Shown: one piece after another, positions 5,896 through 19,024 of the stretch
How the letters are laid out: the number at the start of each line of letters is the position of its first letter
Position numbering within the stretch: position 1 is the first letter of the stretch
Notes under the pieces: model-generated
Database searches by the model: none
Told to the model about the DNA's origin: nothing
The model's input: the letters and a program-made list of their open reading frames with translations, nothing else
Program-made: the position numbers and the translations under genes
Assembly (NCBI GenBank): GCA_965205535.1
Contig: CBDBHH010000005.1
Location: 2,140,672-2,204,671, forward strand
Origin: Alphaproteobacteria bacterium
Lineage (GTDB): Bacteria; Pseudomonadota; Alphaproteobacteria; UBA6615
Direction of reading: 5' to 3'
Length of the DNA stretch: 64,000 bases

Positions 5896-7275
5896 ATGGA
5901 AGTGCTGAGTAACATCGTTAGCGAAATAAACGGCGTCGTCTGGGGCCCGCTGATGCTCGCCCTGATTTTGGGTGTCGGCCTGTACCTGCAGATCGGACTG
6001 CGGTTCATGCCGATTATCAAGCTGGTGCAGGGCTTCAAGCTTCTGTGGGGTGGCCGCGAGAAGGGCGGTGACGGCGAAATCAGCCCGTTCAATGCGCTGA
6101 TGACGTCGCTGTCAGCCACGATCGGTACCGGTAATATTGCCGGTGTCGCGACGGCCGTGTTCCTTGGTGGTCCCGGCGCGTTGTTCTGGATGTGGATGAC
6201 CGCGCTGGTCGGCATGGCAACCAAATACGCCGAAGCGGTCTGCGCTGTGCGCTATCGCGAAGTCGACGAGCTGGGCAACCATGTCGGCGGGCCGATGTAT
6301 TACATCAAGAACGGTCTCTCCAGCCGCTGGTTCTGGCTCGCGCCGACATTTGCGCTATTCGGCGCGATCGCCGGGTTCGGCATCGGCAACACTGTCCAGG
6401 CGAACTCCGTCGCCAGTGTCGTCAACGATACGTTTGGCATTGCGCCGCTTCTCACGGGTCTTGTCCTGCTGGGCCTCACCGCCGCCGTAATTCTGGGCGG
6501 TATCCAGCGTATCGGCGCGGTTGCCGGCAAGCTGGTGCCCTTCATGGCCACGGCTTACATTTTGTGTGGCGCCATTGTGTTGATCATCAACATCACCGAG
6601 ATTCCGGCCGCGATCGCACTCGTCGTGCAACACGCATTTACCCCGGCCGCAGCCGAAGGCGGTTTCGCGGGCGCGGCGGTGTGGGCCGCAATCCGGTTCG
6701 GTGTCGCGCGCGGTGTGTTCTCGAACGAAGCCGGCCTGGGTTCGGCGCCGATCGCTCACGCGGCGGCGGCGACCAAGGGTCCTGTGAACCAGGGCCTGAT
6801 CGCCATGTTGGGAACGTTCATCGATACGCTGATCGTCTGCTCGATCACCGGTCTGGCGATCATCACCACCGGTGTATGGACAAGCGGCAAAACGGGCGCG
6901 GCACTCACATCCGCAGCGTTTGAGGTCTCATTGCCAGGGGTCGGCGGGATCATGGTCGCCGTGGTTCTGGCGATCTTCGCGTTCACGACGATCCTGGGCT
7001 GGAGCTTCTACAGCGAGAAGTGCGTGACGTTCTTCTTTGGCGTCAAAGCAATCATCCCGTTCAGAATTCTGTGGTGTGTCGCCGTACCAATTGGCGCGAC
7101 GGCCGACCTGGGATTCATCTGGCTGTTGGCCGATACGTTGAATGCCCTGATGGCGTTGCCGAACCTGATTGCGCTGGCGCTATTGAGCCCGATTGTGTTC
7201 AAGCTCACGAAGGACTTCTTCGCCAACGGGATGCAGGAAACGCCCATTCCGAAGGAGAGCGGCGAAGAGTCGTAG
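5896..7275 (+). CDS. Alanine/glycine:cation (sodium) symporter, AGCS family
   Basis: 459 aa polytopic membrane protein. FNALMTSLSATIGTGNIAGVATAV and SNEAGLGSAPIAHAAA are characteristic AGCS motifs. RBS GAGGAGG lies upstream. Confidence 0.9.
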   Translation: MEVLSNIVSEINGVVWGPLMLALILGVGLYLQIGLRFMPIIKLVQGFKLLWGGREKGGDGEISPFNALMTSLSATIGTGNIAGVATAVFLGGPGALFWMWMTALVGMATKYAEAVCAVRYREVDELGNHVGGPMYYIKNGLSSRWFWLAPTFALFGAIAGFGIGNTVQANSVASVVNDTFGIAPLLTGLVLLGLTAAVILGGIQRIGAVAGKLVPFMATAYILCGAIVLIINITEIPAAIALVVQHAFTPAAAEGGFAGAAVWAAIRFGVARGVFSNEAGLGSAPIAHAAAATKGPVNQGLIAMLGTFIDTLIVCSITGLAIITTGVWTSGKTGAALTSAAFEVSLPGVGGIMVAVVLAIFAFTTILGWSFYSEKCVTFFFGVKAIIPFRILWCVAVPIGATADLGFIWLLADTLNALMALPNLIALALLSPIVFKLTKDFFANGMQETPIPKESGEES

Positions 7276-7795: not shown

Positions 7796-8173
7796 ATGGC
7801 GAAATTCGGGAATATCACTCCGCCGCAACAGGAACTTGGACCAACCCAAAGATTTCGCTTGGAGAAGCCAAAGGGCGGAAATTCGGGTGTGCCGGCAGTT
7901 GAGATAACTGGTACTTCGGAGTTCTCGGTGTCGGACATCGATGCACCTGAAGGAAACCCGGTTGGAAGGCCACCTCAAGCCAGACATGCGGCCATTATTT
8001 TTCTTCGGGGGGTGCTATCGAGCGGGCGCAAAAGGGCTAAGGATGTCCAAGACCAAGCGGCCGACAACGGAATTTCACGCGAGACACTTAACCGCGCGAA
8101 AGACGACCTGAAGGTCAGTGTTAAGAAGCAGGGCCGATACTGGTACTGGGCGCTGAGCGAGGCCGCGATCTGA
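7796..8173 (+). pseudogene. Probable C-terminal fragment of a mobile-element replication/primase-associated protein (wHTH tail)
   Basis: 125-aa ORF with TGA immediately upstream in frame. The tail GRPPQARHAAIIFLRGVLSSGRKRAKDVQDQAADNGISRETLNRAKDDLKVSVKKQGRYWYWAL resembles the C-terminal wHTH of RepA-like or P4-primase-associated proteins. No ATPase or primase part is present. Confidence 0.35.
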
Positions 8174-8220: not shown

Positions 8221-8429
8221 ATATTTGGTCGCTGGAAGTGACTGAGCACCGCACTAGGCCGTCCTCAGGTCGCCCCTGAGAGCCCTCTGGACGTTGCGCC
8301 GGAGGTGTTCCAGGGTCGGTGCTCCAACGTCGCTGTGCCGCCGATTTTGACGCCTTGGGCCTACGGCAAAAATATCGGGTTGCCGTTCGAGGCGCCCTCC
8401 CCGATCACGATAGCAACGGATTCTATTTC

Positions 8430-8831
8430 ATGGCCGAATATCATCAACACTTGACGATAGAAGCTGAGGAAGCGGTCATTTACCTGATCACGAACTATGA
8501 CGGCAAAAAGGGCCTAGGGCGTTTCTATATCGGTCTCCGTGAATTCCAAGGAGGACCGCCGCCATTCGAATACACCTACGACTACGGTGCTCATAATGCA
8601 GAGTGGCAGGATGACTTCTCGGATGAACAGCGGGTCCAGCATGTTCTAGACCATGCGCTAGAGGCAATCGTTGTTCATCGGTGCGATCTGGTCCAGGTCG
8701 TTCGTGAGGTTTGCAAGGTTCGTCAGGTCCATAACTACACTGAAGACTCTATCTCTCTCAGACGAACCTTCTCTAATGTACTTATAGGGACCGCGAACGA
8801 AGACTGGTCGCCAAGCTCTAGTAAGGATTGA
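8430..8831 (+). CDS. Hypothetical protein (no recognisable domain); start uncertain (GTG 8319 or ATG 8430)
   Basis: Track ORF 8319..8831. AT-richer coding-looking stretch MAEYHQHLTIEAEEAVIYLITNYDGKKGLGRFYIGL... No obvious SD and no motif I can assign. Confidence 0.35.
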   Translation: MAEYHQHLTIEAEEAVIYLITNYDGKKGLGRFYIGLREFQGGPPPFEYTYDYGAHNAEWQDDFSDEQRVQHVLDHALEAIVVHRCDLVQVVREVCKVRQVHNYTEDSISLRRTFSNVLIGTANEDWSPSSSKD

Positions 8832-8979: not shown

Positions 8980-11900
8980 ATGCATGAGAGTTTCTTCGAA
9001 CAACCGATCCTCAATTCTCCCTATAGCGAGCCCTCACGCCATCATGATCTGGATGAAGACGGACAACCAACCGATCAACCCCCCAATGTTGGCCGGCGGC
9101 CATTCTCACGTCTGTCACCAGTACCAAAGCCAAAGAAACGGCGGTCAAAGAATACCAATGATGGCCAGCAGGATTTAGCACTCTACGCTGACGATGGAAT
9201 TTCCACAGTCGAGCAAGAGTACAATCAGACGCAGGTCATTAATAACATTCGAGATCACCTGAAACTCTGGCGTGCCATGACCAATCCTCAGGATTGGGGC
9301 GTGACGCCGGCAACTGCGCGGTTGCTCTCCCACTGGCGCACGCACGAGTTTCAGGGGATCAGGCCGTTCTTCTGCCAAATAGAGGCCGTCGAGACGATTA
9401 TCTGGCTGACCGAAGTCGCGAAACGTCAGCAAGTACACCGAAGCTTCTGGCGCCATATTGAAAATGCAAACGCGGGGGCAAACCCCGAACTCATTCGACT
9501 TGCGATGAAAATGGCGACAGGCGCGGGTAAGACAACCGTCATGGCCATGCTGATTGCGTGGCAATCTGTGAATGCGGTTCGGTCGCCAAACAGCAAGCTA
9601 TTTACCCGGGGCTTCCTTGTCGTCACGCCGGGCATCACAATCAAAGACCGATTGCGCGTCCTGCAACCCAGTGACCCTAACAGCTACTACGAAAGCCGAG
9701 AACTTGTTCCAGCGGATATGCTGCAAGACTTGGGCAAGGCCAAGATTGTCATCACGAACTACCACGCGTTCCAGCTTCGCGAAAAGCTGGAAGCAAACAA
9801 GGTGACCCGATCAGTGCTGCAGGGACGGCATGAGCCGATCCAGAGCAAAGAGACTGAAGGGGAGATGGTGCGTCGGGTAGCTGACGAATTGATGGGCATG
9901 AAAAACATCGTCGTCATCAATGACGAAGCGCATCATTGCTATCGCGAGAAACCAGACGCTGAGGATGAGAAGCTAACAGGCGACGAAAAGAAGGAAGCTG
10001 AAGAGAACAACAAAGCCGCTCGTCTCTGGATAAACGGCATCGAGGCATTCAAACGGAAGCTTGGTGTCGGTGCCGTCTATGATCTATCGGCAACACCTTT
10101 CTTCCTGGCTGGCTCCGGCTGGGCTGAAGGAACGCTATTCCCTTGGACTGTAAGTGACTTTTCGCTCATGGATGCGATCGAATGTGGGATCGTGAAGCTT
10201 CCGCGCATCCCGGTGGATGACAACATCCCCGGTGAAGATATGCCTATCTTCCGGAATTTGTGGGACCACATCGGCAAGAAAATGCCTAAGAAAGGAGGCC
10301 TGACTGTCAACCCACGAACGGCGCTCCCTGACCAGCTTCAAACAGCGCTTCAGTCTCTCTATGGACACTATGAAAAGGTCAACGCCGAGTGGGACCGAGA
10401 GGGTATTGAAATTCCGCCGGTCTTCATCGTGGTTTGCAATAACACCACAACATCCAAGCTTGTTTACGAATGGATTTCTGGCTGGCAACGTCCGAACGAA
10501 GACGACGAGCCAGTGACCGAACACCGTGGTCATCTTTCGTTGTTCAGCAACTTCGACCAGTACGACGAACCTTTGGCTAAACCGAACACGTTGCTGATCG
10601 ACAGCCAACAGATAGAGAGCGGTGAGCTCGACAAGAACTTCCGCGAAATGGCTGCAGCGGAGATTGAGACGTTCAAGCGTGAGCGCAAGCAACGCGGCGA
10701 GTATGGCGATATTGCCGATGCTGAACTGCTCCGCGAGGTCATGAACACGGTCGGTAAGAAGGACCGGCTGGGAGAGAAAATTCGCTGTGTCGTCTCGGTC
10801 TCGATGCTGACGGAAGGTTGGGATACGAATACAGTCACGCACATCCTGGGTGTTCGCGCTTTTGGAACGCAGCTTCTCTGCGAGCAGGTTGTTGGCCGGG
10901 GGTTGCGTCGGCTTAGTTATGACCCGGTCAATCCATCTGATCCGCCCGATCAATGGATGTTCGCGAGCGAATACGCGGACATTCTGGGCATTCCTTTCAA
11001 TTTCACAGCCAAGCCCGTTGTCGCGCCCCCAACGGCCCCAAAGAAAACAACCCACATCAAGGCGCTGAAGGAACGCGAAGCGCTTGAGATCAGATTTCCA
11101 CGCGTGATTGGCTACCGTGTCGATCTTCCGGAAGAGCGGCTGTCCGCAGAGTTCACGGAGACGTCGTCCTACGTGATCGACCATGAAAAGGTCGGCGCGA
11201 GCCAAACTGACATGTCGGGGATCGTCGGCGAGGGCCATACGCTCTCCCTAAAGGACGCACAAAATCTCCGTCCAAGTACGATTGCGATGAACCTCGCAAA
11301 GGATGTGCTGAACCGACATTTCGTCGATGAGGATGGCGAGCCGAAATATCATCTGTTTGGCCAGATCAAAGGCATCTGTCGTCGGTGGATAGACGAAGGG
11401 TATCTGAAATGCCCCGGCGACACAGAACCATGGATGCTGAGTTTCTATCCCGAGATAGCATCGCAGGCCTGCGAGAAGATCGTCACCGCCATCGTCCGTG
11501 CTCGAGGAGATGAGCAGAAGGTCAAAGCCGTTATCGACCCTTACAATCCTGAAGGATCCTCCAGGCACGTCAGTTTCACGACGACGAAAGATGTGCGTGA
11601 GACTGACTCGCGCCGTTGTCATGTGAACTACGTGGTAAGCGACAGTGATTGGGAAGCAGAGTTCGCACGCTGTGCTGAAAACGATGACCGCGTGGTGTCC
11701 TATATCAAAAATCAGGGACTTGGCTTCACTGTCCCTTACAGGGACGGTGACCTGCCCCGTGAGTATGTTCCCGACTTCATCGTTCGCGTTGATGACGGGC
11801 GCGGGCCGGACGATCCATTAAACATCATTATTGAGATCAAGGGTTTCAAGAACGAGCAAGTGAAGCTGAAAAAGGAGACGATGACCGACAAATGGGTGCC

Positions 11901-16343: not shown

Positions 16344-18449
16344 ATGAACTTCCTTCTCGCAGACACCTTCCAGTCAGCGCTGGCCAAGCTTTCAAATGAT
16401 GAGCAGAAGGCCGTTAAACTGACGGTATTCGACCTTCAGCAAGATCCGTCCAATCCGGGATTAAAACTCCATCGCATCGACAAATCGAAAGATCCGAACT
16501 TCTGGTCAGTTCGGGTAAACCGCGACGTACGTCTGATCATTCACAAGACCCAATCGAGTTTTCTGATTGCCTATGTGGATCATCATGACGATGCCTATAA
16601 GTGGGCAGAGCGTCGTCGGATCGATATGCATCCACGAACGGGAGCCGCGCAGATCGTTGAGGTCCGCGAGCGGGTCGAAGAGATCACCATCCCGTCCTAT
16701 GTCCAATCCCAAGAGCCAGAAGTTCAGGAAGCTGCGGAAGCTTCGCCACGTTTCCTTCCGCCGCTGTTCCTGGAGTTAACGGAAGAAGATCTACTGAAAG
16801 TCGGCGTGCCTGAAGATTGGGTCGATGACGTTCGAAATGCGTCCGAGGATAACTTCTTCGAATTGACCGACCATATCCCTGCAGAAGCTGCCGAGGCGCT
16901 TCTCGACTACGTTTCTACGGGTAGTCTTGTCGTGCCCGGCAGCGTCGAGAAGGGGAGCGATCCCTTTGCACATCCCGATGCGCTGCGCCGCTTTCGGGTT
17001 ATGGAGAATGTCGAGGAGCTGGAACAGGCGCTCAACTACCCTTGGGACAAGTGGGCCATATACCTCCATCCCAATCAGCGTGAATTGGTCAATTCAAACT
17101 ATTCCGGCCCGGCACGTGTCGCTGGCTCGGCAGGAACCGGTAAGACCGTCGTCGCTCTTCATCGCGCGGCGCATATCCTGCGCAATGAACCGAATGCGAA
17201 ATTGCTTGTTACGACCTTCTCAAGCCCGCTCTCGAACGCATTGGAGCATAAGCTTCGACTACTCATGGGTGAGGACGGGAACTTCGATCACAAGGTCTCC
17301 ATCAGGCCGTTTGAAGGAGTAGCACGGGAACTGTTCACACTGATAAATGGGCATGACCCGAACGTTGCACGGCAAGAGCACGTGACGGCCGCATTGACGA
17401 CTGCGATGCAAGAACAAGAACTGAGTGGTTTCACAGACCGTTTCGTCCTGTCCGAGTGGCGCTACGTGATCGATGCCTGGCAGATCGACAGCTTGGATGC
17501 TTATGCCAATGTCCCGAGGTTGGGTCGAAAAAACCGCTTAGGCAGTAAGCAACGGGAGCGGCTTTGGCCGATGTTCGAACGCGCCAAGCAGCTTTTGAGC
17601 GATCAACGGCGATATACCTCAGCGACCGTATTTGGCGGCGTCGCCAATCACTACAAGAGCTCTGACGCTAAACCTTTTACACACATCATCGTTGACGAAG
17701 CCCAAGACCTTGGTGTTCCGGAACTGAAGATGATCGCGGCGATTGCGCCTGCTAATCCGCAGGCCCTGTTTTTTGCTGGCGATCTCGGGCAGCGAATATT
17801 CCAGGAGCCATTTTCTTGGCTCGGGTTAGGGATCGACATACGTGGCCGTTCGCACACACTGAAGGTCAACTACCGTACGTCTCACCAAATCCGACAAGCA
17901 GCCGACAAGCTCCTACCGGATGTCGTGCGTGATGTTGACGGCATCGAAGAAGATCGTCGCGGAATGGTTTCGATCTTCAATGGTCCTGATCCGGAAGTGT
18001 TCAAGTACGCGTCGGCTGATGACGAGACCAAGGCCACCGGACGTGCAATCCAAGAAGCCATCGATGAAGGCATGCCGCCCGAGGAGGTCGGCGTGTTCGT
18101 ACGCTCGGAGAACGAGCTCTCTCGTGCGCGTCAGGCTGCCAAAGAAGGCGGTCAGAAGCCGTTGGAGCTATCCGACAGAGTAGAAGATCGAACCGGGAAA
18201 GTAGCCATCGGCACAATGCACCTGGCGAAGGGTCTGGAATTTCGTCAGGTCATCGTCATGGCCTGCGACGATGAAGTGCTGCCCGACCAGGATCGTATCG
18301 ATACGGTGGCGGATGAGGTCGAACTGGACGAGGTCTACGAGACGGAGCGACAGCTATTTTACGTCGCATGTACCCGTGCCCGCGAGAAGCTAATAATCTC
18401 GGGTGTAGAGCCAGCTTCAGAATTTCTCGCAGATATAGTGAATGGATAG
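16344..18449 (+). CDS. UvrD/Rep-like SF1 helicase with N-terminal RelE/ParE-fold-like module
   Basis: 701 aa, starting 5 nt after the previous stop. Walker A GSAGTGKT (aa 261-268), Walker B IIVDEAQDL, VNYRTSHQI, GTMHLAKGLEFRQVIV, LFYVACTRAREKL. N-terminal 95 aa pattern LHRIDKSKDPNFWSVRVNRDVRLIIHK...FLIAYVDHHDDAYKWA. Confidence 0.85.
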   Translation: MNFLLADTFQSALAKLSNDEQKAVKLTVFDLQQDPSNPGLKLHRIDKSKDPNFWSVRVNRDVRLIIHKTQSSFLIAYVDHHDDAYKWAERRRIDMHPRTGAAQIVEVRERVEEITIPSYVQSQEPEVQEAAEASPRFLPPLFLELTEEDLLKVGVPEDWVDDVRNASEDNFFELTDHIPAEAAEALLDYVSTGSLVVPGSVEKGSDPFAHPDALRRFRVMENVEELEQALNYPWDKWAIYLHPNQRELVNSNYSGPARVAGSAGTGKTVVALHRAAHILRNEPNAKLLVTTFSSPLSNALEHKLRLLMGEDGNFDHKVSIRPFEGVARELFTLINGHDPNVARQEHVTAALTTAMQEQELSGFTDRFVLSEWRYVIDAWQIDSLDAYANVPRLGRKNRLGSKQRERLWPMFERAKQLLSDQRRYTSATVFGGVANHYKSSDAKPFTHIIVDEAQDLGVPELKMIAAIAPANPQALFFAGDLGQRIFQEPFSWLGLGIDIRGRSHTLKVNYRTSHQIRQAADKLLPDVVRDVDGIEEDRRGMVSIFNGPDPEVFKYASADDETKATGRAIQEAIDEGMPPEEVGVFVRSENELSRARQAAKEGGQKPLELSDRVEDRTGKVAIGTMHLAKGLEFRQVIVMACDDEVLPDQDRIDTVADEVELDEVYETERQLFYVACTRAREKLIISGVEPASEFLADIVNG

Positions 18450-18948: not shown

Positions 18949-19024
18949 TGGTGCCGGCTAGAGGACTCGAACCCCTGACCTACTGATTACAAATCAGCCG
19001 CTCTACCAACTGAGCTAAGCCGGC
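18949..19024 (-). tRNA. tRNA-Thr (anticodon UGU)
   Basis: Reverse complement GCCGGCTTAGCTCAGTTGGTAGAGCGGCTGATTTGTAATCAGTAGGTCAGGGGTTCGAGTCCTCTAGCCGGCACCA folds as a cloverleaf: 7-bp acceptor, loop TTTGTAA, TTCGAGT T-loop, encoded CCA. Confidence 0.9.

Follow-up and report, generated by a model that had tools for sequence, protein, structure and literature searches.

The window analysed here, a stretch of 64,000 nucleotides from an alphaproteobacterial assembly of the UBA6615 lineage (GCA_965205535.1, contig CBDBHH010000005.1, positions 2,140,672 to 2,204,671), carries a compact block of five genes: a restriction endonuclease gene (res), a gene for a PIN-domain protein, a DNA methyltransferase gene (mod) and two further genes, g4 and g5 (Table 1). 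A first-pass annotation had described five co-directional open reading frames (ORFs) joined by a 4-nt ATGA overlap and then by gaps of 11, 11 and 5 nt. Both points are borne out, the first by ORF calls that all fall on the forward strand and the second by direct reading of the sequence, which places the stop/start overlap of res and the PIN gene at 12090-12093 and the three spacers at the PIN/mod, mod/g4 and g4/g5 junctions, respectively. This tight co-directional packing exceeds chance because the order res-mod-helicase is conserved across phyla. We consider it likely that the block is a three-gene defence core, composed of Res, Mod and the helicase g5, with cargo slots at its internal junctions, and that the C-terminal tail of Res silences a VapC toxin encoded by the PIN gene.

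Table 1. Features of the locus and their positions within the window.
Feature	Position	Strand	Description
Res	8980-12093	+	1037 aa; core gene 1
Res C-terminal tail SAAMYLASRGGQEPELEAPRRRRPASR	12010-12090	+	about residues 1011-1037; homologous to the toxin-binding C-terminus of VapB (PF09957 family)
PIN	12090-12464	+	124 aa; slot 1 cargo
Mod	12476-15415	+	979 aa from ATG; core gene 2
g4	15427-16338	+	303 aa; slot 2 cargo
g5	16344-18449	+	701 aa; core gene 3
tRNA-Thr(UGU)	18949-19024	-	found by ARAGORN and Rfam; downstream edge of the low-GC island

Pfam assigns two domains to Res: ResIII, covering a superfamily 2 (SF2) DEAH ATPase region, and RE_endonuc, a C-terminal PD-(D/E)xK nuclease. The invariant residues include those of Walker A (G181, G183, K184 and T185), the DEAH box (D315-H318) and the PD...ExK motif (P931/D932...E952/K954), confirming the DEAH and PD-ExK features that had been proposed for a protein of about 1,037 aa. 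Res scores 1277 bits, against a cut-off of 800, with the NCBIfam model NF046055 (BPTD_3080 family restriction endonuclease), residues 6-1003 aligning to profile positions 1-969 of 970. There are at least 8000 homologs, usually 1005-1020 aa long, and the N-terminal FFEQPILNSPY is a signature of the family, with F5 and P9-Y15 as invariant columns. The classical type III Res model NF012027 gives 20 bits against a cut-off of 564, which places Res outside that family. A profile of the Res family matched no chain in the PDB, EcoP15I Res included, and a literature search for BPTD_3080 found no papers. The public gene call for this protein (P0002) is 938 aa long, about 99 residues short (8980-9276); the conserved N-terminus starts at residue 5.

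Mod matches Pfam N6_N4_Mtase (E 1e-33) and, over its full length, the PADLOC model MTase_III PDLC03632 (1183 bits). Its nearest solved structures are the Mod subunits of H. pylori (6k0w, 9e-15) and EcoP15I (4zcf, 2e-13). By these matches Mod is a predicted beta-class N6-adenine/N4-cytosine DNA methyltransferase of the type III-like kind. A TTG at 12437 would give an alternative product of 992 aa; the ATG at 12476, with a GAGG 8 nt ahead of it, is favoured as the start because homologs align from query residues 1-13. The protein carries a C-terminal extension of about 440 aa (approximately residues 540-979; 14100-15415) that has no Pfam domain and is conserved across the family, the PADLOC model covering it.

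The last gene of the block, g5, contains the Pfam domains UvrD-helicase and UvrD_C, with a weak HigB-like match at its N-terminus. Its layout comprises a RelE/YoeB-like region (about residues 1-95), a helical middle domain and a UvrD/GajB-like superfamily 1 (SF1) ATPase with Walker A K267 and Walker B D451/E452. Relatives on plasmids, found by tblastn at 46-58% identity, mostly lie in records that also contain a match to a BPTD_3080-family Res, and several of them overlap an adjoining site-specific DNA methyltransferase gene. On plasmids of E. coli and Klebsiella, the same search found relatives that share 31% identity with it across 97% of the length. One E. coli plasmid locus has the published layout of ARMADA type II: a DEAD/DEAH helicase, a large S-adenosylmethionine-dependent DNA methyltransferase, a 2113-aa DEAD/DEAH helicase and a 704-aa helicase. 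Alignment of g5 with the fourth protein of this locus spans residues 5-686 of 701 (BLASTP E 1e-100, 31% identity), and the E. coli protein has Walker A K266 and Walker B D454, the residues mutated in ArmD (PMC12458937). Judged by this alignment, g5 is a full-length ArmD homolog. ArmD is needed for ARMADA II defence (PMC12458937), a requirement confirmed in enterohaemorrhagic E. coli (PMC13463889), and g5 probably has, by analogy, an integral part in the trio that it forms with Res and Mod.

A scan based on Res alignment, with one genome per species, returned more than 595 loci, and we analysed 80 of these from many phyla. A mod homolog lies downstream of res on the same strand in 69 of the 80, and 10 of the other 11 have less than 1.1 kb downstream. 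The one case with 10 kb downstream of the Res homolog and no detectable mod is L075. The gene order res-mod holds in every informative locus (69/69). The res-first order had been singled out as non-canonical in the first-pass annotation; for this Res family it is the rule. Of the 46 loci in which the region after mod could be tested, all but one (45) have a g5 homolog there. The conserved core is thus Res of the BPTD_3080 family, a type III-like Mod and an ArmD-like RelE-UvrD helicase. The first-pass annotation had further proposed that the block behaves as a single composite immunity locus, and had asked whether the PIN gene and the two genes at the end of the block travel with homologs of Res. 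An immunity locus it remains, with a helicase that co-travels and, within a sub-lineage, a PIN tied to Res by a VapB-derived tail; the five-gene unit is not conserved, as none of the 80 genome loci has a PIN homolog and one has a homolog of g4.

The distances from res to mod and from mod to the helicase gene range from an overlap up to 4-6 kb. With slot ORFs chosen by a simple longest-ORF rule, slot 1 (res-mod) is filled in 43 of 68 loci and slot 2 (mod-helicase) in 39 of 45; both are empty in five. Cargo-free trios are found in L001, L017, L019, L059 and L060, and also on a P. avellanae plasmid, where the genes abut. Of the cargo ORFs that reach 100 aa, nearly all point the same way as the core (117/126), and the 154 cargo ORFs fall into 112 sequence clusters. 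Slot 1 holds GmrSD/HEC-05, Schlafen-like ATPases, Bro-N, YhcG/DUF1016, HepT with MNT, Fic/SoFic, NYN and DUF4411; slot 2 holds IetA with IetS (5 loci), ABC ATPases resembling AriA, PtuA and GajA, LmuB, nSTAND, DarT with Macro, and HerA. What lies between the core genes is therefore variable and enriched in known defence families, the pattern of embedded defence cargo. Among close relatives of the window's Res, one at 90% identity has the same PIN; in one at 85%, slot 1 is taken by RhuM with an unknown gene and slot 2 by two small genes; in one at 83%, slot 1 holds an unknown of 387 aa and slot 2 nothing; and in Sphingorhabdus lutea (Res 80% identical) slot 1 is empty and slot 2 holds a g4 homolog. 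Cargo turnover is fast, and PIN and g4 are two independently acquired cargo modules on a three-gene core.

The same system is present on plasmid pAQ5 of Picosynechococcus sp. PCC 7002 (L177, 8989-17591), where slot 1 holds a complete toxin-antitoxin pair of UPF0175 and DUF3368 (PIN-like) and an ABC-ATPase/cytidine-deaminase fusion follows mod. This strain is a model cyanobacterium and would be a convenient experimental host for the system. In the relatives at 83% identity (L084-L086) the genes after the trio are DUF6361, an unknown of 605 aa and a DEAD-box helicase. A serine recombinase lies upstream, and the arrangement hints at a mobile element that carries a larger defence island.

Slot 2 of the window is occupied by g4, which has no Pfam match. 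The AlphaFold2 model of g4 (predicted local distance difference test score, pLDDT, 89) shows an N-terminal beta-rich domain and a C-terminal domain with a fold like that of nucleoside 2-deoxyribosyltransferase (NDT) and TIR proteins. Foldseek returned NDT enzymes as the top matches (E 1e-4), followed by SARM1, TIR and SPARTA, and the PADLOC TIR effector model matches at E 1.8e-10. A glutamate, E246, in the motif NVFYEAG is invariant in the family and is a candidate for the catalytic glutamate of this fold. The protein is probably an N-glycosidase-type effector. The family has about 4000 members and in metagenomes is mostly found apart from this system (about 58 of 60 informative loci); homologs in the same slot occur in S. 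lutea and in L006, L088 and L091.

These comparisons bear on the idea that all five genes form one obligate composite system with conserved membership and order, in which the res-first arrangement is a special regulatory design. The tight junctions and single direction of the block speak for such a system, as do the co-travel of the helicase with the core and the existence of a sub-lineage with the layout Res(tail)-PIN-Mod. Yet the counts for PIN and g4 given above already contradict these two genes as part of a universal set. Trios without cargo exist, Res relatives as close as 83-85% identity hold other cargo, g4 is mostly found elsewhere, and the order of res and mod is simply the family norm. 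We regard an obligate five-gene system as highly improbable.

Slot 1 of the window is occupied by the PIN gene. Its product matches PF01850 (E 3.4e-8) and retains the acidic residues D6, E39, D87 and D105, which align with the DTS, GEIA, xDxHLL and TRD motifs of plasmid VapCs. VapC toxins encoded by 297 plasmids share 35-45% identity with it, and on these similarities it is classed as a VapC-type RNase toxin. In all 8 annotated plasmid regions retrieved, vapC is preceded by a gene for a 64-69-aa VapB with an overlapping stop/start. These plasmid VapBs belong to PF09957, and the Pfam domain spans only their N-terminal 42-44 residues. A vapB-like ORF in an alternative frame upstream of the PIN gene was considered and rejected, there being none in any frame; nor did any frame of the window contain a free-standing vapB with an N-terminal DNA-binding domain near PIN. 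Searches of the PDB by sequence gave no match for PIN and none for VapB. The protein collection lacks an exact match to the PIN protein, which was probably left uncalled or called with another start.

Type II antitoxins are modular: their N-terminal domain binds DNA, and a segment at the C-terminus neutralises the toxin. Res extends about 30 residues past the conserved end of its family, and this tail, SAAMYLASRGGQEPELEAPRRRRPASR, aligns with the C-termini of the 8 plasmid VapBs; with one of them, ARRLAQLGGTEPELEASPRRRPEG, 14 of 19 core residues are identical. The N-terminal DNA-binding half of VapB is absent from the tail. We searched a hidden Markov model (HMM) of the VapB C-terminus against the last 40 residues of 16,791 ORFs, which comprised the six-frame ORFs of the window and of the related loci then collected. 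Three Res tails took ranks 1-3: those of L081 (E 6.5e-4), the window (1.9e-3) and L064 (2.8e-3). Composition-preserving shuffles of each tail never reached the real score (0/20,000). A full-length VapB HMM also put the Res tails at the top of the six-frame ORFs, with E-values of 0.26-0.33, and the tail owes its significance to the C-terminal profile, to the shuffles and to further tails rather than to this model.

These further tails come from a search of 1.84 billion representative proteins with the final 120 residues of Res as query. Among the best 150 matches, 8 have a VapB-like tail, with VapB-profile E-values down to 1e-10 (for example, LERLARAGGSDPDAQYIPRRRSEVAE). In total, 10 contexts of tail-bearing Res were examined. 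Intact Res(tail)-PIN-Mod arrangements are present in L185 and L187, with overlaps of 4 nt and 1 nt, respectively, and PINs that are 35-42% identical to that of the window. L081 has an intact Res(tail)-PIN layout, and in L184 a tail-bearing Res runs through an ATGA overlap into the start of a PIN gene. The stop/start overlap is kept in all five intact Res(tail)-PIN cases. In L181, L182 and L183, decayed Res relics that keep the tail are followed by truncated or frameshifted PINs, Res and PIN having decayed together. These relics lie on long contigs and carry large Res deletions (L181:5650-6910; L182:2880-3830 and 6030-7110; L183:5880-6560), and the two relics of L182 are about 3 kb apart. Between the window and L081 the number of synonymous substitutions per site (dS) is about 0.9-1.8, near saturation, and the ratio of nonsynonymous to synonymous substitutions (dN/dS) stays at 0.03 in the Res core, 0.08 in the tail and 0.13 in PIN. 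Lineages that have diverged from one another share the layout Res(tail)-PIN-Mod, and purifying selection acts on it.

Several observations weigh against a Res tail that silences VapC in a defence core of this kind. The match of the window's tail is modest when taken alone (E about 2e-3 against ORF C-termini). A frameshifted Res with a tail lies in a decayed locus, L186, with no PIN detected, and the tail-bearing Res of L064 has BrnT/BrnA-like genes downstream and no PIN. The in-frame ATG at M1014, described below, could yield a free 24-aa antitoxin peptide instead of a tethered one. For the core, the term type III-like, as applied to Res, refers only to general architecture (a ResIII helicase with PD-ExK), because the score with the type III Res model lies far under its cut-off. 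The RelE-like fold proposed for g5 comes from a model of the N-terminus with low confidence (pLDDT 62), whose best Foldseek matches, to YoeB, ParE, RelE and HigB, are weak (E about 0.1).

The internal ATG at Res M1014 would open a reading frame (12019-12090) for the 24-aa peptide MYLASRGGQEPELEAPRRRRPASR, which is the VapB-like motif by itself. M1014 is conserved in L081, and no clear ribosome-binding site lies ahead of it. The Res of L064 (12990-13671) is cyanobacterial and 60% identical to that of the window, its tail reads LQDLSGSDPSAQGIPPRRPER, and the contig ends shortly past the BrnT/BrnA-like genes.

Some of the same observations would fit a tail that is a functionless relic, left when a deletion fused the 3' end of vapB to res, with PIN inactive, barely expressed or neutralised in trans by a different antitoxin of the genome, and with cargo and core as functionally independent neighbours. 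L064 has a VapB-like tail without a PIN, several loci are decayed, and the PIN ORF is missing from the public gene call. On the other side stand the purifying selection on tail and PIN across a dS of about 1 and the intact acidic residues of PIN. The layout is also kept in lineages whose PINs are just 35-42% identical, and the stop/start overlap in five of five intact cases. We therefore consider a functionless relic unlikely.

We favour instead a tail that still acts. In the model that we propose, Mod would mark host DNA and Res, through its SF2 motor and PD-ExK nuclease, would attack DNA that is unmarked, with the ArmD-like RelE-UvrD helicase as an obligate third partner. The res-mod and mod-helicase junctions would serve as cargo slots for defence or toxin-antitoxin modules, putatively co-transcribed with the core. 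Here, slot 2 would carry g4 as a stand-alone NDT/TIR-like effector, and slot 1 a vapC whose antitoxin gene shrank to its C-terminal toxin-binding peptide and became fused in frame to the end of Res. The Res tail would bind and silence VapC, a 1:1 ratio of the two being favoured by the retained stop/start overlap. VapC would be freed on loss, truncation, degradation or block of Res, as might follow from a phage anti-restriction factor or a mutation in res. Free VapC would cleave RNA and stop the cell, either backing up restriction by abortive infection or penalising the loss of res. From its homology to the toxin-binding end of VapB, the Res tail probably keeps the inserted VapC inactive; we infer the neutralisation itself, the trigger for release, the RNA target of VapC and the role of the helicase.

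The last step of this model admits an emphasis of its own, in which the Res-tail/VapC pair is mainly an addiction device: when res suffers any nonsense or frameshift mutation, or the island is lost, the antitoxin peptide would disappear and VapC stay behind, and cells that inactivate the costly nuclease would be eliminated. The placing of the antitoxin moiety at the extreme C-terminus of a 1037-aa ORF suits this, as every upstream truncation removes it, and vapC retains a GGAGG of its own 11 nt before its ATG. Pairs with an intact antitoxin are common in the same slot, HepT/MNT and the UPF0175/DUF3368 pair of pAQ5 among them. However, res and PIN are both broken in the decayed loci, showing that loss does occur, and translational coupling might lower VapC synthesis when translation of res stops early. 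A device serving mainly for addiction is in our view rather doubtful, though a more serious candidate than a functionless tail. Addiction and anti-phage backup are not exclusive of each other.

The model can be carried one step further, as a possibility that we put forward tentatively. The restriction endonuclease may have taken over the role of an antitoxin by means of a grafted VapB peptide, such that an attack on Res, or its loss, would lead to RNA cleavage and growth arrest. VapC would then be a guard for restriction within a previously undescribed class of Res-Mod-ArmD-like systems, itself a two-slot carrier of immune genes.

The block lies in a low-GC island of about 8.0-19.0 kb, where the GC content is 0.48-0.54, compared to 0.60-0.65 outside. 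Housekeeping genes flank the island, a Na/Ala symporter and Usp upstream and a panE-like gene, MMPL and a tuf/tRNA cluster downstream. Neither an integrase nor a direct repeat turned up in a search for mobile-element boundaries around the island, and the 3' end of the tRNA-Thr gene is not duplicated. A related metagenome-assembled genome (L178) shares the symporter and Usp and then has other genes, synteny breaking right after Usp, and so offers no clean empty site for comparison. Two ORFs lie between Usp and res, at 7796-8173 and 8319-8831, the second inside the island. The first has no match in Pfam, against which alone it was scanned; the second has none in Pfam, NCBIfam or PADLOC, and no tblastn match in the 80 related genome loci. 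An Rfam scan of 7-20 kb found nothing besides the tRNA, and a promoter scan found no sigma-70-like site on the forward strand. The block had been described as free of internal terminator-like hairpins. Four weak sites do occur within it on the forward strand, at 10513, 12367, 15802 and 17747; the overall number of terminator-like sites is at chance level (13 found, 11.8 +/- 3.5 expected). The site within the g5 coding sequence (17747-17774, +) has a 6-bp stem with 5 G-C pairs followed by a T-run. A search of sequencing runs for the locus found it in three, of unlabelled library type and apparently DNA, and turned up no RNA run.

Among known systems, type III restriction-modification (R-M), represented by EcoP1I and EcoP15I, shares with this locus a Res composed of an SF2 DEAH motor and a C-terminal PD-(D/E)xK nuclease. 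Also shared is a beta-class Mod, here related to those of EcoP15I and H. pylori, whose target-recognition region is central. Type III cleavage depends on ATP, on Mod to recognise the site and on two unmethylated sites in inverse orientation. Those systems have two genes with mod first, whereas here res precedes mod, Res belongs to a separate family and Mod carries the C-terminal region of about 440 aa as an extra. A third conserved gene, encoding the ArmD-like helicase, and the two cargo slots are further differences. UvrD-Cas4 fusion helicases adjoining type III Mod/Res have been reported, with Schlafen-like or HTH accessory genes in some loci (PMC5704561). Both arrangements have an SF1 UvrD-like helicase conserved beside a type III-like res/mod pair; in contrast to the fusion helicases, g5 has an N-terminal RelE-like domain and lacks the Cas4 nuclease domain.

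The last gene of ARMADA type II also encodes a RelE-like and UvrD/GajB-like helicase, with Walker A and B residues at matching positions, and both systems are methyltransferase-containing, helicase-rich defence operons. Here a type III-like Res/Mod pair stands in place of ArmA, ArmB and ArmC: Pfam, PADLOC and NCBIfam scans of the five proteins found no Snf2 ArmA, PglX-like ArmB or YprA/DUF1998 ArmC. The trio would be a second context for ArmD and could help explain the function of ArmD-type helicases in ARMADA. Membership of Hma, DISARM or BREX was considered and rejected, the PADLOC matches of Res, Mod and g5 being to type III or generic methyltransferases, GajB and NERD-UvrD.

Defence genes nested in Hma, BREX, DISARM and type I R-M are described in a preprint (bioRxiv 10.1101/2024.01.29.577857). 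As in the loci reported there, variable defence genes lie between conserved genes in our system, and the HEC-05 and PDC-S families of that study are among its cargo. In the passages of the preprint consulted, the Res-Mod-ArmD-like trio is not among the named hosts, and the present system differs in having two fixed slots. Our literature search found no description of a trio of BPTD_3080-family Res, Mod and ArmD-like helicase, of its two slots or of an antitoxin peptide fused to a restriction enzyme, which is not proof that none exists. The trio has thousands of members across many phyla, and the PADLOC models tested barely recognise its Res, which means that annotation tools may overlook it. 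Its two cargo slots are a place to look for new immune genes.

The proposed coupling of a VapB-tailed Res to VapC is the most original element of this system. It shares with VapBC the toxin family (35-45% identity), the overlapping stop/start and the motif L-x-x-x-G-G-x-x-P-x(6)-P-R-R-R. Unlike VapBC, the arrangement here has neither a free antitoxin nor a DNA-binding domain, and therefore no VapB-type autoregulation; the peptide is part of a 1037-aa restriction enzyme. If the coupling is real, a toxin-antitoxin pair has been domesticated into a larger machine with just the neutralising peptide of about 25 residues retained.

HEPN toxins within R-M operons were described earlier (PMC3710099), and the anticodon nuclease PrrC is held latent by the restriction enzyme EcoprrI and released when a phage peptide inhibits the enzyme (PMC12707154). 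Both there and here, the gene of an RNase toxin lies between R-M genes, and by analogy the latency imposed by an enzyme is the logic that we propose for VapC. The components are different: PrrC combines an ABC-ATPase with HEPN and is hosted by a type Ic system, while here the toxin is a PIN protein and the host system is type III-like. The putative latency element here is, moreover, a recognisable antitoxin peptide fused to the nuclease subunit. If Res silences VapC in this way, the fusion would be a simple physical link between restriction, as a first line, and an RNase toxin acting as a second line or as an addiction module; PrrC-EcoprrI, the paradigm of such a link, has had few parallels.

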